Shown: one piece after another, positions 7,672 to 63,512 of the stretch
How the letters are laid out: the number at the start of each line of letters is the position of its first letter
How positions within the stretch are numbered: position 1 is the stretch's first letter
From: a virus
IMG/VR virus record: IMGVR_UViG_3300032753_000007
Span: 1-64,000 of that record
DNA length: 64,000 nucleotides
Strand: one strand, 5' to 3'
The notes under the pieces: generated by a model
What the model was told of the DNA's origin: nothing
The model's database searches: none
What the model saw: only the letters and a program-made list of their open reading frames with translations
Made by a program: the position numbers and the translations under genes

Positions 7672-10600
7672 TTATCCTGTAAAGGATGGTGTAATTGTAA
7701 AGTAAGTAGACTTACGTGTAACTGCAGCACTCGTATTACCAATTGTTTCAGTAGTCGTTGTACTGCCGTCACTAGTAAACGCTATAGCTGTGCTGCCACC
7801 ATCTATAACTATATCTAAAGCATTTGTTGAATCGTGATAAACATATAATTCAAATATATCACCAGGCAATACAGTAATAGGTTGTGAGTTTACTGTTTGT
7901 ACAGTTATATCAGAATATGTACTTACATTATAGTAATAAATAGCACCAGCTGCTGGTTTTGTTGATATGCCGGCGTATGATGTTGCTGGAGATGATATTG
8001 TACTTATTGTCCCACCTATATTGCTATAAAATGTAACACTACAATTTGGATATAAAGTAGCATTATGATAACTATTATATAAGGCATTATAAGCTGATGC
8101 ATCTGCTGCAGTACCTAACCAAGTCATTGTACCGCCTTGTAATGTAGTGGTATTATTCATTGCAGGAACCATAGATTCTGCAATAATAGTTTTAGCACTT
8201 GAACGTGTTTGTACAATAGCTAATCTACGATTACCAGTAGATTGTCCTGATGTTAAATCAGGAGACCATGCTACTGATGCGCCAAAGTTATATTCTCCAG
8301 AATAGCTATCATTAATACAGAATACAGTAGGCTGACTAATATAACCTAATGTAGCATCATCTGCTGAAATATTAATAGCTGCATTACTAGTAAATGTAAA
8401 TGTATTTGCATTTACTAGTGTAGCTAAAACAACACCATTAGCTAATAACCCTATTGAATTTAAAGTAATATTAGTGCCTGTAAATCCAGATAACCGTACA
8501 TTGGATATGTTATATGATCCAGAAGTAGTAGTAGCGGTAGATAATGGATAAGGGGTAGTAATAGTTGCAGTTAATGCAGATGATGGTTTAGTTGTTACTG
8601 AGCTAGGAAATGTAATAGAAAATGCAGTAGCTGATATCCATGTTGCTGTATAAGTACCATTAAATGTAGCATTACCAGTATCTGATAATATTACTGATGT
8701 ATTAGGATTATTATACCCATTATTGGTAGTGATTGTTAATATAGATGATGCAGCAGGTACATCAGTTGCTGTTTGAATACTGTATAATGCGCCCGATACA
8801 ATTGTATTCGCATTAGCTACATATACACGAGTGACTTGTTTATCATATACTAATAAATCTGCAGTTACTGTACCTGAAGTACTAGTTAACGTTATTCCTT
8901 TATGACTACCATCCACATACCCACTGCCTCCATTAGTTGGTAATGTGTTAGTCGTACTACCTGTCCAAGTAAACCCACTGCCTGAATAAGTAGTTAAAGT
9001 AGCTGCTGATATAGTATCTACAAACGTATTATCTTTTAGTGTAACAGTAACAGTACTTGTATTACCAGCAGTTACTGATGACATGCTTTTAATAGCTGCA
9101 GATAAAATGATTGATGAGTTATTAACTGAACAATCTGCAATATTTGAACCAACATAGTTATATAAATACGTAAAGCTAGTACCACTTGTTACCCATACTG
9201 GATAAGTGCCATTGCCAATTGATACGCCACTACTGTTACTTGCATTTGATACAGTTACATATTGACCTGATGATAAATTATGATTAGTGCCACAGTTAAC
9301 TGTCATATAACCTGATACTACAATGGCCCAATTAGCAGCTGATTGGCCTGGGTTATTAACTAATGCATTATAAATGTTCCATGTATTTGTAGTGCTAGTG
9401 ACTACATTTACTAGCCAGAAATCACCTTTATTAATAGCACCACTAGTACCACTACCTCCAGTACTAGGATATGTATTAATAGCATAACTAAATATACCCA
9501 TATAGTTAGTTAATATTAACGTTGTACAAATACTAGGCTTAGCAGTAATACCTGATAACGTACCATTAGTAGCTGCTGTAAACGTGCTGTTAGCTGCATA
9601 AGTAACACCACTAGTGCCAGCAATAGTATTCCACTGTGCTTGAGTTACTGAGCCTGTACCACTATTCAATGAGTTAATAGTGTAGTTTACACCTACTACT
9701 AAACTGCCTAAAGCTATTGTATTGCTAACAGGCGCAGTATATGCCATACTACCATCATTAATAAAATGCGTATAACGATTAACATATGGTGATCTAGTAT
9801 CGTTACTCGTATCCCATGCTATTACACTATATTGCTTTATACTAGATGGTGCTACTGCTGGAATTTGTAAATTCTTATTATTTAATGTTAATGTATCAAA
9901 ACGGTATTTAGCATTACTGGTAATAACGTTACTTTCACTTAATGGTGATACCATAGCAACATGATAGGGCTTAGTAATTGAAGTATTTAAACCATGTAAT
10001 GTATTATTTGCAGTACTAGCTGCATAAACAATAGTACCTGCTGCAGTAGTATATAGAGTACCATCATAAACAATATCTTTAATATCCGTTGGTGTGATAA
10101 TTAACATATCTACATCAAGCTGATTAGTTGTTATGTCATTAATAATGTTTGCCCCTACACCACTATAATTTCTATTATTAACATCAGTTACTGTTAAGTA
10201 ATTAGATGCTGTTAAATCCGTATCACTTAATAATCTAACACGGCTACTCCATTCACCATAACAAACACCAGCATCATACGCATTACTAGCACTATTACCA
10301 GAAGCACTAACGTGTGACAGTGTCATTAATCCACCACCTGCTATATAAATGCCATTAAATGAATTTGATGAACCAGGCTCTTTCCAAAAAATAGAGTTAC
10401 TAATCCAGCCACCAGACATCCAAGTAATATAGAGTGAATTTATATTTGTATTAATATTACAATTACTGATGTTAATGCTATCACTACCTGTTTGATAGTT
10501 TACTACAATCCCATAGTTTGATCCAGCACCTACTACGTTAGCAATAGCCAAACCTTCACTGTATTCAGAATACAGTGTACCTAATGCTATCCATTGTTTA

Positions 10601-50706: not shown

Positions 50707-53700
50707 TTAATAGGTTCTACCACTACTAATAACAGGCGATAGTGTTTGTTTAGCAGATGATGCATTAGCTACAATAATATTTTGAGCAGGTGTATTTGCT
50801 GTTGACTTCATCGTAGTTAATATTTGAGCCAATAGATCATTAGTAGTAGACAATTTAGTAAGATGCTCATCATGTCTATTAGCTGAATCTTTATTAGCTT
50901 GTACTAATTTATCTTCAATAGGTTTAGTATTGAGTGCTGTTTGTGTAGTAACACTAGATAGCGTTGTTGCACTAGGTACAGGCGGCATATCGTTAGCTGT
51001 GCTTGTAGTTGTAGATTTAGATGCAGCTGCAATAGGCGATGTTACCGCATTAGCTGGCGTTACTGAGGTAGCAGGCGTAGGCATTACACTAGATGTAGGC
51101 ATTGGTGGCATGTCATTGCTTGCTAGTGATGGGCCATTTCCTTTAGTTGCAAATGCATCAGCAGGGGGTAAGCCACCTGTATTAATAGGCACATTTGTAT
51201 TAGCAATGGCATTACTACTAGACGATACTGCTACTTGATAGGCTTCATCTTCAGACATGCCTTTAGATAAGTTAGCTTTATATTGCGCTCTACTGACATT
51301 CATTGCAGTAATTACACGCTCAGCTGATACTGAAGCTACATTACCATGCCCGTGCTTACTTCTGCCTGTATTAGGGTCAGCTAAACTCGCCCATTCTTCA
51401 GCAGCAGCATTAGCAGCAGCAACTGGATTATCAGTTTTACCTTTAATATAGGCTGATATTTGAGGTCTTTTTTTATCTAATAAATATTTACTAAATAAGA
51501 GTTCTTGTGTTTTAGCATCAAACTTAGTTGTATCTGGATTTAATCCTAATTTCTTTATGCCGTCTATTAATGTTGGTGGAATCATTTGATACTTACCTAC
51601 AGCAAATAAACGACGCTCATCATTAGCAGATCTATTCATATCCGCTAGTATTTCAGATAATGTCATGCTCGTTAAATCACGATTACCTACTGGACCTAAA
51701 ATCTTATTACCAGAAGTACCACGATTATAAGCGTTATAGCCTTTACTGCCTGATTCAGCATTTTTAATTAAACCAGCTAATGAGTTAACTACCGGTTCAA
51801 CTAAATTAACTTTAGCCCAATCAATGCCTTTACCGGCTGCTGTTTTACCTAATGTGTAAAGCTCTTTAGCTTTATCACCTACTTTACCAGCAAAGTCTTT
51901 AATAGGATTTAATAAGTTTTCTTTACTCCAATCTACTGCTTGATCAAACATAGATTTCTTAGGTGTACCATCTGGATTAACGCCTTGCTGTCTATCTCTA
52001 TCATAGTTAGGTGGTAATACTGGTTTATCTTTATCTAGTTTAGTAACAGTAGGATGTAAATTAATTGCAGATACTTTCTTTAAGTTATCTGCTTTAGTAT
52101 CATTATTTCTATTAGCTTGATTCCTAAGTTGTTCTACTAATACGTCAATAGTACTTTTATTATCACTTAACGTTATATCATGCCAAGGACTATTTTGTAT
52201 GCCATAAGGATTCATACCTAAGTTAGCTTCAACAGAACCAAACTGTACTAAGTTAACAAACTTAATTATATCTTCTTTTTTTAATTCATCGTCAATATTG
52301 TCTACTTTACTTTTACCAAATTGCTGTAAGCTAGCTTTATGTTTAATATAAACAGGTAAAAACCGTTTATATAACCAGGTATTAAAGTTAGTCTTATCAG
52401 TCATGTTGTCATAAGTACAACCAAAATCTTTATAGTACTTTTCCCATACTTCTTTAGGCAATAAATCTATTTTAGGAATATTTTTAGTGAGTGTAATATG
52501 GGGTGTAAAATCAGATTCAAAATTACGCATATCTGCTACTGCTTGACTATTATCAATAGGTATACCATATTGTAAAAATCTTAATTTTTCTAAAGGCTCT
52601 AATGCTGTTCTATTCATTATATATTTAGTGCCTTTATATAAGCCATAGCCAGCAGCACCAACAATAATAGCCCAGCCTACTGGATTAGATAACAATAAAG
52701 CACTTTCACCTAACGCTGCGCCTGCCACGCCTAACTCACCAACAGTAGCTAGTCCAGCGCCACCTTCAGCAGCTGCAGTAGCAGCGCCTGCTGCAGTAGC
52801 AGCGGCTTCACCGCCAGCTAGTGCTCCAGCTCCAGCTACTCCTGCTGCACCTGCACCACCAATACCTAAAGCACCTAACGCTTTACCGCCCCAGCCTTTA
52901 GCATCTTTTACTAGATCACCTGCTTTACCAAATGCATCTAATATACTACCGCCAGTAGGAGTCACAATTGGTGCTGGTTTCTTATTAGTAGGTACACCCA
53001 TTTCACGTAATTTTTTAGCAGTTTCTTGTTTAGCTTTACGTTTTTTAATAATGTCTTGAAACCCACCTTCACGATTAGCTTCTTTTTCTTCACTATTTTC
53101 AGTAGGCCACTTAGTGCTAATATAGTTTTTAATATCTTTTAGTGTAGTATTAATGGTATCTAGTTTATTACTGATCTCATTAACGTTTTCATCTACTGAT
53201 TTAGTTTTCTTTCTATTTTTAAAGAAGCTGCTAATGCTGCCTACAGGATTTTTTAATACACCACCTAATTTACTAAACCAATTGCTAGCATCTTTTTTAT
53301 CAGGTTTTCGTTTACCCATAGCAGCAAATAATAAATTAGACATTACTTGAGTAGTGCCTGTAAAAGCACCCCAACTTAGTTTACCTAATGTACCTACTGC
53401 TCTAGCTGCACGCTTAGGTGCTTTCTTAGCAGACCACCATATTAGATTGCCTAATAGCTTTGCTGGGAGCAATGCGAGTTTAGCACTACCAATGCCTAAT
53501 TTAGCAGCTAATGGACCTAATACTTTAGCTACTGTCCAACCAACCTTAGCTAGTCTTTGTGCTCTTTCAGGGGCTTTCATTAGTTGTCTTTTTAAAAATC
53601 CACCACCTTTCCATAATGTTCTGCCTGTAAAGCCTAACATTGTTTTAAGCGGATTATAAGCAGCCATAGCTAAACTAAATGGTAGCTTTGCAAGTGTCCA

Positions 53701-56700
53701 AGGTATTTTTATTAATGCTCCGCCTTTATCTACTATAAAGCGGCTAATGCCAGATAAGCGTTTAAATGAATTACCAAATTTAATACCTAAATTTTTACGT
53801 ATACTAGGATCACCATCTGGAGAAGGGGCTGCATAGCCCGCTGATGGAATGGTAGCAATAATGGTTTGTAATAGTGTATTAGTGGATGTGCCTGTTTCTG
53901 TCAAAACAGTCATTAGATCTTTATGTTGATCTTTTAATTGTTTAGATAATGAAGTTAATTCATCAGGATTACTGCTATTGAATAAACCATTATGTTTTTG
54001 ATTATCATCATTATTCCATTTAGGTAAATTTAATTTAGGCAATTCTATTTTATTACCGTATTTATCATAGAGCTCAGTGGCATTTGTTTTTAATGCATTT
54101 ACGCCAGTACTCCATCTATTTTTAATGTTCTCTTTTATATCAGAGCCTTTTACTTTTTTTGCTTTATTTTTAATAAGCTCTTTTACTTTATTAACACTGC
54201 CATACTTTTCTTTAAGGTTATTAAACGTAGTTTCTCTGTTATCAAAAGCATGTGTTAATGCAGCATTAATTTGATTAGGTGTTAATCCTTTACTTGTTAA
54301 GTTTTCAAATAGTTTTGGATTTTTTTCTTTTATTAAAGTTTCTAAATTTTCTACTGTTGGTTTATCCGGTAATTGATCTTTATGTTTATCATAGAAACCA
54401 CGAATAGCAGTAGTAGCTGTATTAACTAGCTTATCTTTTCTTTCTAATAAATTAGTTTGTAAAGCTTTAGCATCAAAAGGCGTATGGATTACCTTATTAG
54501 CTTCTTCTAATTTAGTCTTTAATAAATCTTCTATTTCTTTTTTATTAAACCCACGTTTTTCTAATTCAGTAAATAGTTTACCACTTTGTGCAGTTAGTTG
54601 CTTACCGATTTCTTCAGGTTGTAATTGAGCGGGTATTAAATGTTTATGTTTATTATAGAAGGCTTTGCTTTGTTTACTTGCTTCAGTAATGTGTGGTGCA
54701 ACATGTTTTAATAAACCACTTTTAACATTTTCTATATTTTGAGATAATGGGATAGCTGTTAGTTTTCCTTTAGTATCTTGAATATAAGTTGATAGCCCTT
54801 TTATCCGCTTACTGCCAGCACTATATACGCTATTTAAATGTTTAGATAATTCACTTGGTGTGGAAGTATAATTAATAAATCCAGCACTAGGCATTAAATC
54901 AATCATGTTTTGTAGCAGGGCATTATTACTGCTGCTATGTGCTGCTAACGCCTTTAACATATCGCTATGATTAAAGCTCATTACATTAACTAATGTAGTA
55001 ATATTATCATTACTAAAATTAACATTAGTAGTAGGCGATATCCCCTCATTAATGTTAACTGTAGAGGATGTAGGCAATAATGAATTATTACTAGATAATG
55101 GTGTAGGGTGAATGGTTTTACCTGCCATTACTTTCATTCTGGCTTTAGGTGATTTATTTTGATCGCCATATAAAGCGTCAATTAAATCCCAACGATATTG
55201 TTGATTAACAGCACCTTCATTATTGATTAAATTACCTAATAACTCTTTAGTACCTGTTGCATTAGCTTCATTAAGTACGTCACCAAAATTACCCACGCCA
55301 TATCGCAAAGCATTATAATTTCTGCTAATGTCTTTTTTTAATGTAGCAGTTTCTATATCATTGCTTGATACAGTCTTTATTCCGTTTTCATTAAACTCTT
55401 CAGTAATTTTAAACTTTTCTATAAATAAATTAGCAATTTTATTACGAGATTCATATGAGAGTACAGCAGGTAAGTTATCAGGCGATGCATAGTCTATTGG
55501 GTCAAAGTTAACACCTTCAACCGCTGATTGTTTCATAAAGAAAATACCTAAATATTTTCTTTCATTGGCATTTAGTATATTTTTATCAGGATCAATTAAA
55601 TCAATGATATAATCAGCATTTGTTTTTAAATCAACACCGACTTCTTTTTTTAATAGCTCACTAACTCGTTTTTTAGCACTAGATAACGTAGTAAACTGTT
55701 CAGTACGTGTATCAAACGTCAATCGTTCTGCTATTTCACCATTGCCTGATGTGTAGTTATAGAGTTTAGTTTGTTGTTCTAATATACGAGAAAGATAGCC
55801 TGGAATAATCTCTATTAATGAGCGACGTGATATTAAATCCCATGATACTGTTTCTGTAGCATCACTCATTAAATTCTTATTAACAGATTCGCCTAATGTG
55901 CCATTATCGCCACCATTAAATAGCTCGCCTACTGAGCCTACTAATGACCCGTATTCTGCATGTTTAACTTTACGATTAATTATACCTGGTAGATCACCAA
56001 ACCAGCGTGCTAGATCTTGTCCTACTGCATTAGTTTTATTAATGGCGCTAGTGCCTCTTTCACCAAGCACATTTTCAACATGTTTTTTACCATTCTTTTT
56101 TATCCAACCTGCAAATAACTTTCCAAGACCTTCACGCGCTTCATCGCCTGCCATACCTGCTGCCATTTCAGCAGCAGATGGCATAAATTCATCCATGCCA
56201 TCTTCTTGAGGTAAATTAGAATTTATAGCACTAGCAAATTCACTAATTTGTGTTTTTAGATTATTTTTAATACGATTAGGCATATCACCTAATCGATTAC
56301 TAATACTCTTTTGTACACTACCAATGATGCGTCGTTTACTTTCATCTCTAAACTTTTCAGAATTAGTTACTTTAACTTCATTAGGTAATGCTGTATTTTT
56401 AACAACATCAGCTAATAATGTTAATGTTTTACTATTATGAGAAAGCGTATTTTCTAATATGTCTTGTGTAGCAAAATAATGGAGGTATTGTACTTCTAAT
56501 GACTTTTTATAATAAGTAGCTAATATCTTATCTTGAAAACCAACTATTCTTCCAATACCACTAACTATTTTATGCTGATACTCTATACCATGTTGAAATT
56601 TAGCTTTATCTAATTTAATGCTATTTAATTGAATAACATCATCGCGCTTTCTTTTTAACTTACCTTCAAGTTGTTGAGCACCAAAGATAGTTTCTAATGT

Positions 56701-57180
56701 ATCTTTTAATCCTGTTTCTCTTGTATTTGAAGACCGTCCATAATCGTATGAATCGGATTCTTTTCCTACATGAGACATGTCTTTTATTTTATTAGTCACT
56801 TTATTAGGTAAGAATTTACCTAATGTAGGGAGTGCTTTTTGTACTTTTTTATCAATAACATTTAGCGCAGGTGCAAGTTCTTTTCTTGCATCATCAAACA
56901 TGCTCTCTGCATCATATTTAAATGACATAATAGAGCTATAAGCGTCGCCGTAACTACCTGGTAATACATCTTTAATTAACTTACCTATAAAGCCAATGCC
57001 ATGCTCTTTTGGATTAAAACTGCTTTTTAATCCTGACGCTATATCGCTAATAGGTTTGCGATCTTTTTTAATATCAGGATCTGAATCATCAAAATCACCA
57101 AATTCAGATCCAAACTCTTTCATAAAGTCATCATAGTCATCATCTAAATCTAACTTTATATCATCATCTTTCTTTGCCAT
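50707..57180 (-). CDS. Tail tape-measure-like protein with C-terminal lysozyme domain (phiKZ gp181-like)
   Basis: 2157 aa; 'KNTALPNEVK', 'SLIEIIPGYLSRI'; lysozyme motifs 'AESGSKGYNAYN...AVGKYQMIPPTL...FDAKTQE...EWASL'; Gly/Ala hydrophobic stretch. Confidence 0.85.
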   Translation of the reverse strand: MAKKDDDIKLDLDDDYDDFMKEFGSEFGDFDDSDPDIKKDRKPISDIASGLKSSFNPKEHGIGFIGKLIKDVLPGSYGDAYSSIMSFKYDAESMFDDARKELAPALNVIDKKVQKALPTLGKFLPNKVTNKIKDMSHVGKESDSYDYGRSSNTRETGLKDTLETIFGAQQLEGKLKRKRDDVIQLNSIKLDKAKFQHGIEYQHKIVSGIGRIVGFQDKILATYYKKSLEVQYLHYFATQDILENTLSHNSKTLTLLADVVKNTALPNEVKVTNSEKFRDESKRRIIGSVQKSISNRLGDMPNRIKNNLKTQISEFASAINSNLPQEDGMDEFMPSAAEMAAGMAGDEAREGLGKLFAGWIKKNGKKHVENVLGERGTSAINKTNAVGQDLARWFGDLPGIINRKVKHAEYGSLVGSVGELFNGGDNGTLGESVNKNLMSDATETVSWDLISRRSLIEIIPGYLSRILEQQTKLYNYTSGNGEIAERLTFDTRTEQFTTLSSAKKRVSELLKKEVGVDLKTNADYIIDLIDPDKNILNANERKYLGIFFMKQSAVEGVNFDPIDYASPDNLPAVLSYESRNKIANLFIEKFKITEEFNENGIKTVSSNDIETATLKKDISRNYNALRYGVGNFGDVLNEANATGTKELLGNLINNEGAVNQQYRWDLIDALYGDQNKSPKARMKVMAGKTIHPTPLSSNNSLLPTSSTVNINEGISPTTNVNFSNDNITTLVNVMSFNHSDMLKALAAHSSSNNALLQNMIDLMPSAGFINYTSTPSELSKHLNSVYSAGSKRIKGLSTYIQDTKGKLTAIPLSQNIENVKSGLLKHVAPHITEASKQSKAFYNKHKHLIPAQLQPEEIGKQLTAQSGKLFTELEKRGFNKKEIEDLLKTKLEEANKVIHTPFDAKALQTNLLERKDKLVNTATTAIRGFYDKHKDQLPDKPTVENLETLIKEKNPKLFENLTSKGLTPNQINAALTHAFDNRETTFNNLKEKYGSVNKVKELIKNKAKKVKGSDIKENIKNRWSTGVNALKTNATELYDKYGNKIELPKLNLPKWNNDDNQKHNGLFNSSNPDELTSLSKQLKDQHKDLMTVLTETGTSTNTLLQTIIATIPSAGYAAPSPDGDPSIRKNLGIKFGNSFKRLSGISRFIVDKGGALIKIPWTLAKLPFSLAMAAYNPLKTMLGFTGRTLWKGGGFLKRQLMKAPERAQRLAKVGWTVAKVLGPLAAKLGIGSAKLALLPAKLLGNLIWWSAKKAPKRAARAVGTLGKLSWGAFTGTTQVMSNLLFAAMGKRKPDKKDASNWFSKLGGVLKNPVGSISSFFKNRKKTKSVDENVNEISNKLDTINTTLKDIKNYISTKWPTENSEEKEANREGGFQDIIKKRKAKQETAKKLREMGVPTNKKPAPIVTPTGGSILDAFGKAGDLVKDAKGWGGKALGALGIGGAGAAGVAGAGALAGGEAAATAAGAATAAAEGGAGLATVGELGVAGAALGESALLLSNPVGWAIIVGAAGYGLYKGTKYIMNRTALEPLEKLRFLQYGIPIDNSQAVADMRNFESDFTPHITLTKNIPKIDLLPKEVWEKYYKDFGCTYDNMTDKTNFNTWLYKRFLPVYIKHKASLQQFGKSKVDNIDDELKKEDIIKFVNLVQFGSVEANLGMNPYGIQNSPWHDITLSDNKSTIDVLVEQLRNQANRNNDTKADNLKKVSAINLHPTVTKLDKDKPVLPPNYDRDRQQGVNPDGTPKKSMFDQAVDWSKENLLNPIKDFAGKVGDKAKELYTLGKTAAGKGIDWAKVNLVEPVVNSLAGLIKNAESGSKGYNAYNRGTSGNKILGPVGNRDLTSMTLSEILADMNRSANDERRLFAVGKYQMIPPTLIDGIKKLGLNPDTTKFDAKTQELLFSKYLLDKKRPQISAYIKGKTDNPVAAANAAAEEWASLADPNTGRSKHGHGNVASVSAERVITAMNVSRAQYKANLSKGMSEDEAYQVAVSSSSNAIANTNVPINTGGLPPADAFATKGNGPSLASNDMPPMPTSSVMPTPATSVTPANAVTSPIAAASKSTTTSTANDMPPVPSATTLSSVTTQTALNTKPIEDKLVQANKDSANRHDEHLTKLSTTNDLLAQILTTMKSTANTPAQNIIVANASSAKQTLSPVISSGRTY

Positions 57181-57205: not shown

Positions 57206-59302
57206 ATGTTAAGTAAAAAAGAACCCTTTAATATATTTTTATTAAGTAATCAGAAATCACGTCTGATGGGCCTATTGCCTGTCCAATCAATGGACATTAA
57301 AAACATTGGTGGAGAATTTCATCCACAAGGGCTATACAGTATTGAAATATTTGGTGCACTAGGATCTAGGCAGCGTCAAAATAAACACGCCTATATTGAT
57401 ATGCGCTGTTATGTCATGCATCCTAAAATCTTTAGTGATTTAGAAAAACTAAAAGGACTCTATGCAGGCATCATGAGTAGAAAACAATATGCATTATGGG
57501 ATAATAACATAAAAGACTTTGTTAAGGCTGATGCCATTGATGGTAAAACAGGTTATTCTTTTTTTATGTCTCATTTTGAAGATATTCAGTTTCCACGTAA
57601 TGAGTCAGGCATACGCGATGCACGTATTGATCTATTAATACAAGAACAAAAAAAATGTATGTATCGCTATTTAGTTGTATTACCTGCAGGATTAAGAGAT
57701 TTGACTTATGATGAAAAAGGTCAAGAAGTAGAAGACGAAATTAATCCTATCTATAGAAAAATATTACGTACAGCTAATACTATTTTAGTAGATAATAACA
57801 ACATAAATCCAACAAATATTGATGTGGCTAGATGGACATTACAGACATCATTTAATGAGCTTTATGATTACATAGAATCAATCCTAAGTGGTAAGAAAGG
57901 ACTCATATTATCTAAATTAGCAGCACGCGCAGTGCATGGCGGTACACGGGCTGTATTGACGGCGGCGGATCCATCACCTGCTCATTTAAATGCGCCTGGT
58001 GGCTTTACTGTAAATGATACATTAGTGGGTTTACATCAATATATAAAAGGTACAGTAGAGTTAACTATTTATGGTATTAAAACAGGGTTAGCTAAAGACA
58101 TTATTGATAGATTACCTGGTGAAATATCATTAGTTAATAAAAGCACTTTAACTAAAATAACATTAAACCCATCAACTGATACAGTTACATTATGGGGTGG
58201 CGAAGTAGGATTAGAAAAACTAATTAATAAGTTTGAAAAACCTATTATACGACATAACCCTATAATGATTGATGGTCATTATTTAGCTTTGTTATATAGA
58301 GATAGTACGCATTTTAAAGTACTGTATGATATTACTGATTTACCTAAAGAGTTTAATAAAGCTAACGTAAAACCTATTACATGGGCTGAGTTTTTTTATT
58401 TAGCTGTTTATGAGCGCGTTAAAGATGTAGCAGTTTATGTTACGCGTTATCCTATTACTGAATTAGGTAGTATTTATCCATCTATGGTTAAATTACAAAC
58501 AACTGTACAGTGTGAAAAGCTAATACCATTAGATGATGATTGGAAACCTATAACTACTAATGTAAATGAAGTAACTGCCTACGCAATGCCTGTTTTAGGT
58601 AAACCCTTTTATGATAGTATCTCTGTACATACTACAAAGCTTCTTGAATTAAACGCAGATTATGACGGTGATAAAGTAAATGCTGTATTTGTAATGTCTA
58701 AAGAAGCAGTAGATGAAGTAAAAAAATACCATCATACAAAAACTACTTTTTTAAATAGTAGTGGTAGTTTACGGTATGGTGCTTGTGGTGTTAAAGATCC
58801 ATTAATTGGCTTGATATTACAAGGACTAACATCCGGTTTAGATAAAGATAAAATAATTACTATAGAGCCATTAAAAGAGAGTGAAACTAAAAATTATATT
58901 CAGTTAGTTGAACATAAATCACATGACCCTTCATTAGGTGGCATTGTTATTGATAAATTAAAAGCTGAATCTATTTATAGTAATTTATCTGATAGTGCTA
59001 ATATAGGCTATACATTGAAACGAGGTAGTGCTATAGTTGGATTTGCTGTTTTTATTCGATCAGGCGTTTCTATGTCAGGTGAATTATACTGTATTGTTTT
59101 AGATATTTATTCAGGTAATAACTACGGCTATAAAATACTTAAAACATTATTAAAGCAATTAAAAACACTAGGTGTTAAAGAAGTCATTACTACTGTAGGT
59201 AAAGACGCATCTGCTGGTATTGTTTTATGTAAAAAACTAGGCTTTATGTATGTGCCAATTAAATCACCTAATGTAATAGAATATCGTTTGAGGTTATTAT
59301 GA
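57206..59302 (+). CDS. rpoC: Virion RNA polymerase beta' subunit (catalytic; phiKZ gp180-like) with C-terminal GNAT-like domain
   Basis: 'FHPQGLYSIEIFG', 'VLPAGLRD', 'SGKKG', 'TRYP', 'NADYDGD'; the extra ~150 aa has a GNAT pattern. Confidence 0.9.
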   Translation: MLSKKEPFNIFLLSNQKSRLMGLLPVQSMDIKNIGGEFHPQGLYSIEIFGALGSRQRQNKHAYIDMRCYVMHPKIFSDLEKLKGLYAGIMSRKQYALWDNNIKDFVKADAIDGKTGYSFFMSHFEDIQFPRNESGIRDARIDLLIQEQKKCMYRYLVVLPAGLRDLTYDEKGQEVEDEINPIYRKILRTANTILVDNNNINPTNIDVARWTLQTSFNELYDYIESILSGKKGLILSKLAARAVHGGTRAVLTAADPSPAHLNAPGGFTVNDTLVGLHQYIKGTVELTIYGIKTGLAKDIIDRLPGEISLVNKSTLTKITLNPSTDTVTLWGGEVGLEKLINKFEKPIIRHNPIMIDGHYLALLYRDSTHFKVLYDITDLPKEFNKANVKPITWAEFFYLAVYERVKDVAVYVTRYPITELGSIYPSMVKLQTTVQCEKLIPLDDDWKPITTNVNEVTAYAMPVLGKPFYDSISVHTTKLLELNADYDGDKVNAVFVMSKEAVDEVKKYHHTKTTFLNSSGSLRYGACGVKDPLIGLILQGLTSGLDKDKIITIEPLKESETKNYIQLVEHKSHDPSLGGIVIDKLKAESIYSNLSDSANIGYTLKRGSAIVGFAVFIRSGVSMSGELYCIVLDIYSGNNYGYKILKTLLKQLKTLGVKEVITTVGKDASAGIVLCKKLGFMYVPIKSPNVIEYRLRLL

Positions 59303-59565
59303 AAGAAGAGTATAAAATTAAATTATTAGCATTAGTAAAGTTAATAAAAAAACGTTTATGTAAATTAGTAGGCTGTAATTTTTCATTAGTTGATGAAGTC
59401 ACTGTAAACGCTATTAGTAAACACCAATCTTATACTAAATTTACATTAAGCTGTAAACGCTGTAAAGGTGATATGATGATTGGTATGCTAGTGCCTATTA
59501 CTGAAATAGAGTTAGAAGATGCTATTTTATTAGAAAAATTTAAAAAGGGGTTAATTGTAAAATGA
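59299..59565 (+). CDS. Small Cys-motif protein
   Basis: 'LCKLVGC...SCKRCK'; ATGA-coupled on both sides. Confidence 0.6.
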   Translation: MKEEYKIKLLALVKLIKKRLCKLVGCNFSLVDEVTVNAISKHQSYTKFTLSCKRCKGDMMIGMLVPITEIELEDAILLEKFKKGLIVK

Positions 59566-62500
59566 CACTATTATCTACAGATGCTTTTACAACACAATTT
59601 GTTACACGACAATTAAATAAACTCAGCACTGTATCTCGTTTACGATCAGTTGATGATTTTGAATTACCTGAAAATGCGATTATTCATTATGTTAGTGATA
59701 GCGATCAGGTATTAGGCATTACTAAATCTAACGATATGATTAGAAGTACTAGCGATGTTTATACTTATCACGTTGATGCATTAGAGGGTAAAGAAGGCCA
59801 TTATAGTAAATCAGAAACTACACTAAATGCTTTAATTACAAAATACCATCAGTTTAATTTAGGTATTAAACGCATTAATAATCTGTCAAGTGTATTAGAA
59901 AAAGTTAAACAGCCTATTGTAGTTAACTATAGCATGTTACCTTCTTTATACAAATATACTGTTTCTTCATTATCAGTCTATTACGAGTGGTTAAATATAC
60001 GGACTACTATTTGGCACCATATTAAAGAAATAGGCAGCGATAAGCTTCATTTTATAGTTTATAAAATACCTGAAGTATTAATTACTAAAAATGATTTAAA
60101 CAAATATGCCCATAATTTTAAACCTGATGCGTTAGAATTATTTACTGATATTAATAATTTAAACCTATTAGAGCTATGGCGAATGTTAGGCGAAAATAAT
60201 ACTACATTAGAAAGTGAAATGGATGAATTACTTTTAAGTAAAGTACATATCGTATTTATTGAAAGTAGACATATCGGTATTTTTACATTAAAGTCTTTTA
60301 TTGATTGGGGTAAAAGCGATGGCTCTAAAGCTAAGATAGAGTTTTATAATTTCTTAGATAATTTAATTGCTAAACGCTCTAACTTAGAATCTGAAAAACT
60401 AATTAAAGAAGCAGGTGAAGAGCCTGAACAAGGTGAAATTAATAATGATAAAATTCATCAATTAATTAATGAAAAAGCAGAAAACGGCTTATTATCTACT
60501 AATGAAAAGAAAGCTTTATTAAAACTATCTGAAAAACATAAAACAGTAATAGACCCTGTTACTGGTTTAACGTTAGATAAAATAGCTGTTAAAAATACTG
60601 AATTAGTATTAAAGAAAAAACCACTCATTAAAGATAATAATACTATTTTTGATAAGTCTATGCTATACAGTAGCATTAGAGATTTAGACAAGCAATATAT
60701 TGAAGAAGGCTTATTACATCGGCATATGATAGAATCCGTAATGATGTTACATCCAGCAGGTGTCATTGTTAAAGATATGCGTGTTAAAGATAAAATGACA
60801 GCCGCTACTAAAGCAACTGTATATAGTTTTTCTTTACAGCCTATTAATGGGCCTTCATCTACTATTACTTTTCCTATCCCTAAAATTAATCCAGATGGTA
60901 CATTTTTAGCTGGTGGTGTTTTATATCGAATGGATAAGCAACATGGTGAAATGCCAATTGCTAAAATTAAACACGATACAGTTAAATTAACTAGCTATTA
61001 CGGCACTATCTTTATTAATCGATCTGAAAGTACAGTGACTAATCTATCTAAATGGATAGTCAATGCATTAGTTAAATTGACTAAAGCAGGATCAGTTACT
61101 AATTTAGTTTATGGTATTACTACTAAATTTGATAAAAACTTACCTAGACAATATACAGCCATAATGAAAAGTATTAGTCGGTTTAATTATCAGACTACTG
61201 AAGTTAATTATAGCTTTTATTTTACCTATAGTAAGCTTAGTAATTTCTTTTCAGAAACAGAAATAGCTAAATTTGCTAATAGTAAGTTAGTAGGTTGTGG
61301 TAGAAATGAAAAGACAGGTAATCTATTAGTCATGGATGAGTTAGGTGATGTAATAGAGTTACAAGATAACTCACCACTTAACTTAGGCAAGATACAGAAT
61401 ATACTATCTGATACAGGTGGCCCTATTGAATATACTGAAATGGGTTTATTAAATAGACGTATTCCAGTAATAATGGCTATGTGTTATGTACATGGATTTA
61501 CTAAAATTTTATCTGAATTAAAAGTACCTCTTGTTCAACATCCAGCAGGCACTAGAGTGCCCTATAAGCCAAAAACTTATGTATTAAAATTTAAAGATGT
61601 CGTTATTGAATTACCTTATAGAAATGTAGAAGAAGAATTACTATTCGGCGGGTTTATGCCATTTCGTAAAGATTTAATCAATTTCCGTAGTGGCGATTTA
61701 AATAAACGAACTGCTTATTCTAATTTATTAAGTGGTAATGGATTATCTACTTATCATTTTAGAGAATTATTATTAATGTGGGATATGTACATTGATCCTA
61801 TTACAGCTGCACTATTACGAGAAACTGATGCACCTACGGACATCTTTAATGTTATATTAGCAGCTAATCGTTTATTAATTAACGATGCTATGCCTGATTA
61901 TACGACTGTACGGTATAAAGGCTATGAAAGACTATGTGGGTTTATGTATAAAGAGCTTATTGGTGCAGTTAAAGCACACCGTGCTAAAGGCGCTTTAAGT
62001 GATGTAGGCATTACTATTAAACCTAATGGTGTTTGGTTAAATATATTGGAAGATCAATCTATTGTCTTAGTAGAACAAAGTAACCCTATTCATAATTTAA
62101 AAGAGCAAGAAAGCTTTACTCATGCAGGTGCTGGCGGTAAGTCCGCCATTACTATGGTAGCTGCTACACGTGGTTTTAAAGACAGCGATTTAGGTGTTGT
62201 ATCTGAAGCTACACCTGATTCTGCTAAAGTAGGTATTAGAGCTATGTTAACGCCTAATGCTAATATTGTTAATCTATTAGGTATGGTTAAACAATATGAA
62301 GAAGATAAAGATGGTATTAGTTCAGTTATATCTACAACTGCTATGTTAGCACCAGGCATTACCCATGATGATGGAAAACGATGGAACTTTAATAATGTTC
62401 AAATGTCACATGGTGTAGCTGCGATTGGTTATCAACCGTTACCCTATCGTACTGGTTATGAGCAAACAATTGCTAATCGTGTTAGTGATTTATTTGCTAC

Positions 62501-63512
62501 TGTAGCTACAGGTAATGGTTTTGTTTCTGAGATTAAATCATCTGGCATTACAATTACTTATGATGATGGTTCTAGTAAAACGTATTTCTTAGGTGTTAAA
62601 CACGGCATTGTATCGGGCAGTACTATACCACATCACATTGTAACGCATTTAAATAAAAATGATAAAGTTATTAAAGATCAAGTCATTTGTTATAATGACG
62701 GGTTCTTTACAACAGGCGAATTAGATCCAAAAAGCATTATTTATAAACACGGCGTTATTTGTAGAATCGCATTAGCTGAAGATAGCGATACATTAGAAGA
62801 CGGTTGCGTTATATCAAAAGGATTAGCTGATAAACTATTAACACCTACATCAGAAGTCTATGGCATTGTTTGTGACTTTAGTATGGCAATACATAATTTA
62901 GTTACTATTGGACAACGCGTTACACCTGAAACTATTTTGTGTATTCTTGAGCATAGCTATGAAGGTGCTGCAGAAAAAGATTCTGATGCAATTTGGGCAT
63001 TAAGTCAATTGAGCAATATATCGCCTAAATGTAAAGTCTATGGTACAGTCAGCGATATTGAAGTAGTTTACTTTGGTAAGCTAGAAGATATGTCACCTTC
63101 TTTAGCTGAAGTCGTTAGACACTACGATGCAATACGAAATCGTAATGTTAAAACCTATTCTTTAAATGAAGCTAAATCAGGTGAAATCGATGAAACAATT
63201 CGTGTATCAGGTAAAAAGCTAATTAAGAATCAAGCAGCTATTAAGATATATGTGGATTATATTTTAGATATGGGTGATGGCGATAAGATCGTTATAGGCC
63301 ATCCATTAAAAACAACCATTAGTCGAGTAGACATTAATCCTATGACAACTGACGATGGTGTTGAAGTAGATGCTTTATTTGGCGCTCAATCGGTATCAGC
63401 GCGTATTGTAAAATCTGCTGAAATATGTGGATTATCAAATGAAGTAATGTGTAAATTATCAGTAGATTTTGGTGAAATGGTTTTAAAACTTAATGAAGGA
63501 GATAACAAATGA
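59562..63512 (+). CDS. rpoB: Virion RNA polymerase beta subunit (phiKZ gp178-like)
   Basis: 'NPIHNLKEQE', 'SEATPDSAKVG', 'HDDGKR', 'YRTGYE', 'TLEDG', 'GDGDKI'. Confidence 0.9.
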   Translation: MTLLSTDAFTTQFVTRQLNKLSTVSRLRSVDDFELPENAIIHYVSDSDQVLGITKSNDMIRSTSDVYTYHVDALEGKEGHYSKSETTLNALITKYHQFNLGIKRINNLSSVLEKVKQPIVVNYSMLPSLYKYTVSSLSVYYEWLNIRTTIWHHIKEIGSDKLHFIVYKIPEVLITKNDLNKYAHNFKPDALELFTDINNLNLLELWRMLGENNTTLESEMDELLLSKVHIVFIESRHIGIFTLKSFIDWGKSDGSKAKIEFYNFLDNLIAKRSNLESEKLIKEAGEEPEQGEINNDKIHQLINEKAENGLLSTNEKKALLKLSEKHKTVIDPVTGLTLDKIAVKNTELVLKKKPLIKDNNTIFDKSMLYSSIRDLDKQYIEEGLLHRHMIESVMMLHPAGVIVKDMRVKDKMTAATKATVYSFSLQPINGPSSTITFPIPKINPDGTFLAGGVLYRMDKQHGEMPIAKIKHDTVKLTSYYGTIFINRSESTVTNLSKWIVNALVKLTKAGSVTNLVYGITTKFDKNLPRQYTAIMKSISRFNYQTTEVNYSFYFTYSKLSNFFSETEIAKFANSKLVGCGRNEKTGNLLVMDELGDVIELQDNSPLNLGKIQNILSDTGGPIEYTEMGLLNRRIPVIMAMCYVHGFTKILSELKVPLVQHPAGTRVPYKPKTYVLKFKDVVIELPYRNVEEELLFGGFMPFRKDLINFRSGDLNKRTAYSNLLSGNGLSTYHFRELLLMWDMYIDPITAALLRETDAPTDIFNVILAANRLLINDAMPDYTTVRYKGYERLCGFMYKELIGAVKAHRAKGALSDVGITIKPNGVWLNILEDQSIVLVEQSNPIHNLKEQESFTHAGAGGKSAITMVAATRGFKDSDLGVVSEATPDSAKVGIRAMLTPNANIVNLLGMVKQYEEDKDGISSVISTTAMLAPGITHDDGKRWNFNNVQMSHGVAAIGYQPLPYRTGYEQTIANRVSDLFATVATGNGFVSEIKSSGITITYDDGSSKTYFLGVKHGIVSGSTIPHHIVTHLNKNDKVIKDQVICYNDGFFTTGELDPKSIIYKHGVICRIALAEDSDTLEDGCVISKGLADKLLTPTSEVYGIVCDFSMAIHNLVTIGQRVTPETILCILEHSYEGAAEKDSDAIWALSQLSNISPKCKVYGTVSDIEVVYFGKLEDMSPSLAEVVRHYDAIRNRNVKTYSLNEAKSGEIDETIRVSGKKLIKNQAAIKIYVDYILDMGDGDKIVIGHPLKTTISRVDINPMTTDDGVEVDALFGAQSVSARIVKSAEICGLSNEVMCKLSVDFGEMVLKLNEGDNK

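Follow-up and report, generated by a model that had tools for sequence, protein, structure and literature searches.

A GNAT-fold domain at the C-terminus of a virion RNA polymerase subunit

We analysed a 64,000-nt stretch of phage DNA (positions 1–64,000 of IMG/VR record IMGVR_UViG_3300032753_000007; hereafter the window), in which a single open reading frame (ORF) of 698 amino acids (aa) on the plus strand (57206–59302, stop codon included) joins a beta'-N subunit of virion RNA polymerase (vRNAP) to a domain with the GNAT acetyltransferase fold. The source record is a 109,752-bp fragment, ~41% complete, from lake or freshwater metagenomes, and carries the fused gene in single copy. The RNA polymerase (RNAP) module, of phiKZ gp180 type, occupies aa 1–545 (57206–58840, plus strand); it contains the catalytic Mg-binding motif NADYDGD, read from the translation at aa 483–489 (58652–58672), and ends 56 aa C-terminal of that motif with GLTSGL (aa 540–545; 58823–58840). 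A short linker, DKDK (aa 546–549; 58841–58852), where unfused subunits end, leads into the GNAT-fold domain (aa 549–698; 58850–59299), within which we located degenerate versions of motif A, the pyrophosphate-binding loop (S-G-N-N-Y-G, aa 636–641; 59111–59128), and of motif B (A668, G671 and C675, followed by a conserved G679-F680; 59207–59245), all on the plus strand. The initial annotation, made from the sequence alone, had placed an acetyltransferase-like domain at 58845–59302, which corresponds to aa 547–698 plus the stop codon; its coordinates and quoted residues are correct, as is its observation that RNAP-like sequence ends at GLTSGL about 55 aa after NADYDGD while the same frame continues. 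The frame runs on through DKDK-IITIEPLKESE to the motifs that it quoted.

The polymerase part resembles phiKZ gp180

Profile searches assigned the N-terminal part to phrog_2986 ('RNA polymerase beta subunit'; aa 4–525, E = 8.7e-171, profile positions 4–524 of 539), and phrog_2987 gave only a partial match (36 bits). When the window protein was compared with phiKZ proteins at E ≤ 10, gp180 was the sole match (E = 1.6e-92, 35% identity over the segment). Residues D485, D487, G488 and D489 are invariant in the fused-family alignment (A2), the Pfam Rpb1 domain 2 match stops at aa 507, and the A2 profile's N-terminal portion matches the beta' subunit of the AR9 non-virion RNAP (7s01_d); a phmmer search of the whole protein against the PDB returned no match. 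A translated search (tblastn) with the whole protein matched 313 phage records, all jumbo phages, at 33–40% identity; the matches listed end at query aa 487–547, with the exception of Pseudomonas phage D6, which extends to aa 577 across two annotated genes, and in none of the 313 records was the GNAT part aligned. With vRNAP beta' genes of jumbo phages the identity was 37–39%, and these alignments stopped at query aa 522–547.

Gene order points in the same direction. In phiKZ, gp180 is flanked by gp181 (tail-associated endolysin) and gp179/gp178, with gp180 and gp178 annotated as structural head proteins; the syntenic genes of Erwinia phage RAY are annotated as a giant lysozyme-domain protein (encoded on the other strand), 'vRNAP beta' subunit 1' and 'vRNAP beta subunit 1'. 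The order gp181-like / beta'-N / beta (gp178-like) is common to the window, phiKZ and RAY. Downstream of the fused gene lies a 1316-aa vRNAP beta subunit of phiKZ gp178 type (59562–63512, plus strand; phrog_3148, 1128.7 bits, and synteny), and upstream a divergent 2157-aa ORF (50707–57180, minus strand) is placed like phiKZ gp181 and RAY gp162, a giant lysozyme-domain virion protein. This neighbour was named gp181-like from its position and size; its arrangement relative to beta'-N recurs in RAY, in phiKZ and in two related loci, L003 and L005 (IMGVR_UViG_3300045806_000063). By these comparisons the window subunit classifies as a virion-type (gp180-like) beta'-N carrying the DFDGD motif, not as part of the non-virion set, and the virion-type identity proposed by the initial annotation is upheld by gp180 being the only phiKZ match together with the gp181/gp180/gp178 synteny.

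The C-terminal domain is predicted to be a complete GNAT fold

Sequence searches with the C-terminal domain gave a weak signal that is nonetheless above threshold. Against a PF00583 cut-off of 20.7 bits, the isolated domain scored 22.7 bits and the genome search gave 23.3 bits, a small margin given that the whole protein scores just 19.4 bits, and PHROG acetyltransferase families matched with E = 3.6e-5 and 4e-4. The best NCBIfam match was RimI (TIGR01575) at 21.1 bits, far below its equivalog cut-off of 86.4; RimI was also the best NCBIfam match for the corresponding domains of three fused relatives (P0045, P0005 and P0003; 30–50 bits), again below 86.4. The window domain thus appears RimI-like at most, and not a RimI orthologue. 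A phmmer search of the domain alone against the PDB retrieved only two GNAT chains at E = 0.05–0.07, and the profile of the fused family retrieved GNATs at E = 1e-12. Neither the window domain nor three relatives nor the downstream 88-aa ORF matched a PADLOC model of defence systems at E ≤ 0.01, a result that does not in itself exclude the family.

Structure prediction was decisive. An AlphaFold2 (AF2) model of the domain built on alignment A1, in which residues 17–166 correspond to protein aa 549–698, reached a mean confidence (pLDDT) of 70 and a predicted TM-score (pTM) of 0.71; only the a1-a2 loop and the 15 N-terminal residues were modelled with low confidence. Its element order, b1-a1-a2-b2-b3-b4-a3-b5-a4-b6-b7, is the full GNAT topology. 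Foldseek against the PDB returned at least 500 matches at E ≤ 1e-3 (best E = 2.6e-9, probability 1.00), and the rows listed are GNAT-family acetyltransferases throughout. Re-alignment to solved GNATs with VIA gave Z = 18.2 and a root-mean-square deviation of 2.4–2.5 Å over 150 of 166 residues; two structures of RimI, 2cnm and 5isv, aligned at Z = 17–17.6, and the structural neighbours include SpeG, RimI, phosphinothricin acetyltransferases and Naa30/50. On the strength of this model, aa ~549–698 is a complete GNAT-fold domain. The in-frame GNAT-like domain on the catalytic beta' subunit that the initial annotation described is accordingly borne out by Pfam, PHROG, AF2 topology, Foldseek and VIA, and the fold comparison it had proposed as a check came out in its favour.

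The domain begins where the subunit normally ends

We next considered the junction. Strand beta1 of the model begins at aa 550–551; in an unfused close relative (L003, 57% identical), the second exon of the beta'-N gene ends 2–3 residues past the position of GL545, and canonical unfused homologues are 537–554 aa long. Because both the L003 exon and the canonical lengths end there, the GNAT domain starts exactly at the normal C-terminus of the subunit, joined by a 4-residue linker, and the comparison of gp180 homologue ends suggested by the initial annotation gave the same answer. The beta'-N C-terminus marks the place at which beta' is naturally divided in these phages. Going by the general architecture of RNAPs, the next element of beta' would be the pore/secondary-channel domain, and the GNAT domain would be expected to sit close to the secondary channel.

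The same region is also interrupted in some relatives. In L003 (region 9474–10145), a group I intron (RF00028, 77 bits, E = 1.3e-19, at 9607–9921) lies right after the DFDGD codons, followed by a 55-aa exon 2 that ends just before the beta gene. Homologues of ~490 aa (P0002, P0007, P0009 and others) match exon 1 in length, and their genes may be interrupted likewise; two of these short forms, P0002 and P0020, are sisters of fused proteins. The window gene has no intron. In phiKZ itself (L085; NC_004629 186157–189258), the annotated gp180 is only 490 aa long and stops just after DFDGD, similarity to the window protein runs past the gp180 stop to query aa 510 with stops inside, and gp179 (357 aa) plus ~500 unannotated bases precede gp178. 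The end of phiKZ gp180 looks like the same intron site as in L003, with an intron-encoded ORF.

Could the fusion be an artefact, in which a missing stop codon or a chimeric contig merged two genes? The one point in favour is that the record is a metagenomic fragment, ~41% complete, and we consider this explanation very improbable. Logan contigs of independent lake-water runs span the junction region: a 12-kb contig of run X3 covers 58300–59614, contigs of X4 cover 58300–58888 and 58877–59244, and a contig of X5 covers 58555–59136, each with 0 differences, such that three other samples are identical across 58300–59244 or more. The same junction occurs in nine further fused proteins from other assemblies. 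One of them (P0001, 695 aa) is 95% identical to the window protein and shares its architecture; the other eight (P0003, P0005, P0008, P0010, P0013, P0045, P0046 and P0029) are more distant, with 40–46% overall identity. Six of these are 692–700 aa long (P0003, P0008, P0005, P0010, P0013 and P0045), P0046 is N-terminally truncated and P0029 is longer; PF00583 scored 43–84 bits in the four fused relatives scanned (P0003, P0005, P0045 and P0029). The lost stop near 58840 that the initial annotation had raised is absent from independent contigs and homologues alike.

The junction contains no in-frame start with a ribosome-binding site, and its promoter-like and terminator-like matches do not exceed those of shuffled sequence, observations that weigh against two genes and on which we also rejected separate expression of the GNAT part. 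Inspection by eye, which is not a formal test, revealed no S/A/G-x-E sequence, the prohead-protease cleavage motif known from phiKZ work, at the junction.

Active-site motifs are degenerate in the window copy and intact in relatives

Motif comparisons, which bear on activity and not on membership of the fold, set the window domain apart from most of its relatives (alignments A1 and A2). The motif A consensus is Q/R-x-x-G-x-G/A, and fused relatives read Q/R/H-x-x-G-Y-G/N/S; of this the window sequence, S636-G-N-N639-Y640-G641, keeps only the last Gly. For motif B, with the consensus N-x-x-A-x-x-L-Y-x-x-x-G-F, the window protein and P0001 both read A-S-A-G-I-V-L-C-K-K-L-G-F, in which A668 replaces Asn, G671 replaces Ala and C675 replaces Tyr, and L674, G679 and F680 are kept; in the other fused relatives (8/8), the Asn, the Ala (Gln in one) and the Tyr are retained. 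Four consensus changes are therefore found in the window protein and its 95% twin: Q/R to Ser, the first loop Gly to Asn, the motif B Asn to Ala, and the general-acid Tyr to Cys. The initial annotation had already described motif A as degenerate and the motif B Asn and Tyr as replaced by Ala and Cys, and the alignments agree. Y640 is invariant in 10/10 fused proteins and is not found at that position in the generic GNATs P0121 and P0122.

Most fused relatives have retained the canonical residues for cofactor binding and catalysis, and for the family as a whole a RimI-like protein N-acetyltransferase that depends on acetyl-CoA is the most likely identity; for the window copy, these sequences make loss of activity likely, although not certain.

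The window domain has also diverged strongly. Its identity to the other fused GNAT parts is 13–26%, compared with 45–53% for the RNAP part and with 22–38% among the GNAT parts of the other fused lineages, and a hidden Markov model (HMM) of the relatives' GNATs scored it at 31 bits, below two unrelated canonical GNATs (48 and 64 bits). Between the window protein and P0001, 7 of 153 positions differ in the GNAT part, all conservatively, and 24 of 542 positions differ in the RNAP part, together with a 3-aa indel. Because the GNAT part of this pair diverges no more than the RNAP part, we consider the domain derived but currently constrained. The sole indel, a 3-residue insertion of C-G-V (58784–58792; aa 527–529), falls ~20 residues short of the junction, within the final conserved segment of the RNAP part.

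The fusion is rare and was gained or lost repeatedly

In a 71-row tree built on the RNAP part, which included the ten fused proteins and unfused forms of ~540 and ~490 aa, all fused rows fell in one clade (38/71 rows; Shimodaira–Hasegawa-like approximate likelihood ratio support (SH-aLRT) 95), interleaved with ~540-aa and ~490-aa forms. This fusion clade consists of uncultured jumbo phages. We read the ~490-aa forms as exon 1 only, from their length and the intron seen in L003; with these rows dropped, the fused rows still need ~5 state changes. Forcing the 10 fused rows into one clade was rejected by the approximately unbiased (AU) test (delta lnL 179, p-AU = 3e-53), which excludes a single origin without loss and indicates that the domain was gained or lost several times. 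One gain with several losses and several independent gains are both compatible with the tree. That the fused GNATs share their junction, their length and the invariant Tyr640 suggests a common origin, which a profile score cannot prove because generic GNATs outscore the window domain.

Among ~160 beta'-N loci collected from IMG/VR and metagenomes with 6–8 kb flanks, a GNAT occurred within 6–8 kb only in L005, which encodes P0029, and in the window, so that the fusion is rare. Origin from a neighbouring gene was rejected, since the HMM of the relatives' GNATs matched only these two loci. Broader searches were similarly sparse. A single-sequence search of the GNAT part against 1.8 billion protein representatives returned, besides P0001, just two generic GNATs with weak scores; searching the phage collection for near-identical DNA and a tblastn search of the GNAT part alone against 50,697 phage records returned nothing; a region search with the canonical GNAT of P0045 returned only itself; no fused forms longer than 1222 aa were found; a scan of GTDB genome contigs found no relative; and a metagenome scan added 80 beta'-N loci without a further GNAT fusion.

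Other domains occupy the same C-terminus

The GNAT is not the only domain found at this position. In P0024 (1000 aa), an inorganic pyrophosphatase (InPase) domain (PF18823, 186 bits) follows the RNAP part without a GNAT, and P0029 (1214 aa), encoded as one ORF in L005 (7983–11627), combines beta'-N, GNAT, InPase (PF18823) and a second GNAT. P0029 also has a ~170-aa tail without assignment and resembles a polyvalent protein, and in L005 the beta gene is not immediately downstream. In PHROG searches, the InPase segments of P0024 and of P0029 matched families of giant virion, minor-head and DarB-like proteins. ORF042 of Ralstonia phage RP12 (L166:1483-3477), a jumbo phage in culture, encodes a 664-aa protein with a ~125-aa C-terminal extension at the same site, where the ParB-like nuclease profile PF08857 scores 20.6 bits, below its cut-off of 23.6. 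P0113 (657 aa), which carries phrog_17560, seems to be of the same type, and L049:9597-10004 was grouped with the RP12 extension. With respect to modularity, the window protein has two modules and P0029 at least four (RNAP, GNAT, InPase and GNAT); their delivery would follow that of the polymerase.

These architectures raise the possibility, which we advance tentatively, that in this clade of uncultured jumbo phages the beta'-N C-terminus is a swappable cargo site and that a multisubunit vRNAP doubles as a 'polyvalent' effector-delivery protein, its GNAT acetylating, within minutes of the start of infection, defence proteins or proteins injected with it. In such a scheme, GNAT, InPase, tandem GNAT-InPase-GNAT and ParB-like domains would interchange, each riding the polymerase into the early infection compartment.

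Between the fused gene and the beta gene, an orphan 88-aa ORF (59299–59565, plus strand) overlaps each adjoining gene by ATGA at its start and its stop. Its four Cys (C-x4-C ... C-x2-C) make it possibly a small zinc-binding protein; it had no match in Pfam, PHROG or PADLOC and no homologue in ~85 related loci. In run X6, one contig carries an additional C following 59332, within this ORF, and several short contigs of X3, X5 and X6 match only 59318–59369 and then diverge, which suggests a short repeated or shared element.

A proposed role as polymerase-borne cargo

What might the domain do? The phiKZ system provides the frame of reference. There, gp180 is the DFDGD subunit of the vRNAP, present at ~10 copies per virion, and an mCherry-gp180 fusion was assembled into the vRNAP, packaged (7 +/- 4 per virion by fluorescence, ~10 by western blot), injected, and co-localised with the injected DNA; newly made gp180 was found in the cytoplasm and kept out of the phage nucleus (PMC10612078). 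The vRNAP is active inside the membrane-bound early infection vesicle (PMC13282480).

The initial annotation had wavered between an injected acetyltransferase and a dead scaffold, and here we infer rather than observe: our best reading, to which we assign a probability of roughly 0.6, is that the GNAT domain is cargo on a packaged polymerase, likely active and RimI-like in relatives and probably weakened or non-catalytic in the window copy. The domain would travel with the polymerase because a gp180-type subunit, judged by phiKZ, is packaged and injected. The beta'-N C-terminus would be a tolerated, exposed attachment point, with the attached domain going wherever the polymerase goes: into the capsid, then the early infection compartment, then, with newly made subunits, the late cytoplasm. 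Confinement of the vRNAP to the vesicle would favour co-injected or vesicle-associated targets at injection, and the late cytoplasmic gp180 pool would make host targets possible. As for catalysis, four consensus positions are replaced yet conservation equals that of the polymerase part, and on these grounds we lean, by a modest degree, towards a module whose catalysis is weakened or lost and which is retained for a binding or structural role; a standard acetyltransferase seems rather doubtful for this copy.

Several considerations weigh against this proposal. GNATs bind their cofactor through backbone amides, and at least one solved GNAT-fold protein, 1y7r, has Q-G-Q-A-Y-G at the cofactor loop; with Ala at that position in 1y7r, a missing first Gly is no proof that binding is lost. 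Proton donation by Tyr could be taken over by the Cys in motif B. That the two parts diverge equally is read from 7 substitutions, counted in protein sequence. Packaging and injection of the window protein are extrapolated from phiKZ to an uncultured phage, and the tagged phiKZ fusion was N-terminal, whereas the cargo here is C-terminal. If the vRNAP is kept in the early vesicle, host cytoplasmic targets would be unreachable at injection. Lastly, the structural neighbours (SpeG, RimI, phosphinothricin acetyltransferases and Naa30/50) do not discriminate between substrates.

Three other accounts of the window domain deserve comparison with the cargo proposal. It might be a working acyltransferase with a non-canonical site, in which Asn takes the place of the loop Gly, Cys675 serves as proton donor or acyl carrier, and a co-injected or host protein is modified early in infection. 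Such an enzyme would be in keeping with the complete predicted fold, in which every strand and helix is present, with the retention of the second loop Gly, Y640, L674, G679 and F680, with the 95% conservation of the domain between the two variants, with the existence of a solved GNAT-fold protein (1y7r) that lacks the first Gly, and with relatives that look active. We nevertheless regard it as somewhat unlikely, as the four consensus positions changed together and in the window lineage only, the domain scores below unrelated GNATs on the profile of its own relatives, and the 1.8-billion-protein search yielded little beyond P0001. Another possibility is that the domain is a remnant of a once-active cargo module, now functionless. 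Lost consensus residues, the 13–26% identity to other fused GNATs against 45–53% in the RNAP part, and repeated loss of the domain in related lineages are what decay would leave behind, but the gene is free of stops, frameshifts and truncations, the model shows the full fold (pTM 0.71), the window protein and P0001 differ no more here than in the polymerase part and by conservative changes, and the identical sequence recurs in several lake samples; we judge decay improbable.

A further alternative has the domain act in cis on the transcription or DNA-ejection machinery and not on host proteins, for example by acetylating co-packaged inner-body proteins or polyamines so that the injected DNA is released, or by modifying the polymerase itself, much as the pyrophosphatase at the same site in relatives would serve transcription directly. 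The 4-aa linker would hold the domain beside the polymerase core, the vRNAP is confined to the early vesicle with DNA and co-injected proteins, SpeG polyamine acetyltransferases are among the top structural matches, and the InPase at the same C-terminus has a proposed transcription-linked role in clearing pyrophosphate (PMC5512222). Yet the structural ranking of GNATs is not substrate-specific, the best sequence family is RimI-like, a protein N-terminal acetyltransferase, and the domain is dispensable in many nested relatives, which would be unexpected for a core transcription function. This alternative appears unlikely to us, less so than decay.

In infections by phiKZ-like phages the vRNAP is the earliest phage enzyme at work in the cell, inside the recently described early infection vesicle, and the natural fusion described here reveals that the C-terminus of this polymerase subunit tolerates an additional folded domain and that one clade uses this site for different enzymes. 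It offers a handle on what else is delivered along with the genome, on protection or priming in early infection, and on an attachment site for foreign cargo on a packaged phage protein; the pairing of intact relatives with a degenerate window copy also constitutes a natural experiment on the transition from enzyme to pseudoenzyme. The advance is a moderate one, because GNATs have been described before both as modules of injected proteins and as stand-alone products of jumbo phages, and the phage is uncultured. What is new is the contrast between intact motifs in relatives and a degenerate copy, the repeated gain or loss, and the presence of other enzyme domains at the same site. The initial annotation knew of no such fusion in phiKZ-family RNAPs, and in the literature searched we likewise found no paper reporting one; PMC7824862 describes RNAP subunit architectures without a GNAT fusion.

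Comparison with known systems

The closest known counterparts of the polymerase part are phiKZ gp180 and its homologues such as RAY gp163, which represent the same subunit as window aa 1–545 in DxDGD motif and gene order; cultured homologues are ~540 aa long (490 aa for the annotated phiKZ gene) and end where the window GNAT begins. RP12 ORF042 shows that a cultured jumbo phage can likewise bear an extension at the same beta'-N site, one that is not a GNAT. Bacterial RimI, the S18 alanine N-acetyltransferase, is the best NCBIfam match, but the window copy lacks the conserved Tyr and scores of 21–50 bits lie far below 86.4.

Stand-alone phage GNATs provide a functional parallel: Rac of the phiKMV group acetylates the alpha subunit of host RNAP, and RimI-like GNATs occur in group 1 (phiKZ-group) jumbo phages (PMC7824862). 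These share with the window domain the GNAT fold, a RimI-like affinity and a proposed role in takeover or protection of host or phage machinery; they are separate early products with canonical motifs, whereas the window domain is degenerate and covalently attached to a structural polymerase subunit. T4 Alt, an ADP-ribosyltransferase packed in the head and injected with the DNA (summarised in PMC5512222), embodies the same concept of a packaged protein-modifying enzyme, with another fold and chemistry and outside the polymerase.

The nearest conceptual relatives are the injected polyvalent proteins of phages, which commonly hold RimI-like GNAT and InPase modules, the N4 virion RNAP included (Iyer et al. 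2017, PMC5512222). The window family resembles them in module types, with a RimI-like GNAT and, in P0029, GNAT plus InPase, and would resemble them in virion delivery. Polyvalent proteins, however, are MuF/portal-associated giants or the single-subunit N4 polymerase, whereas the carrier in the window is a two-module subunit of a multisubunit (beta/beta'-type) vRNAP. Two known elements, a gp180-type vRNAP and the GNAT modules found in injected phage proteins, are newly combined in the fusion.

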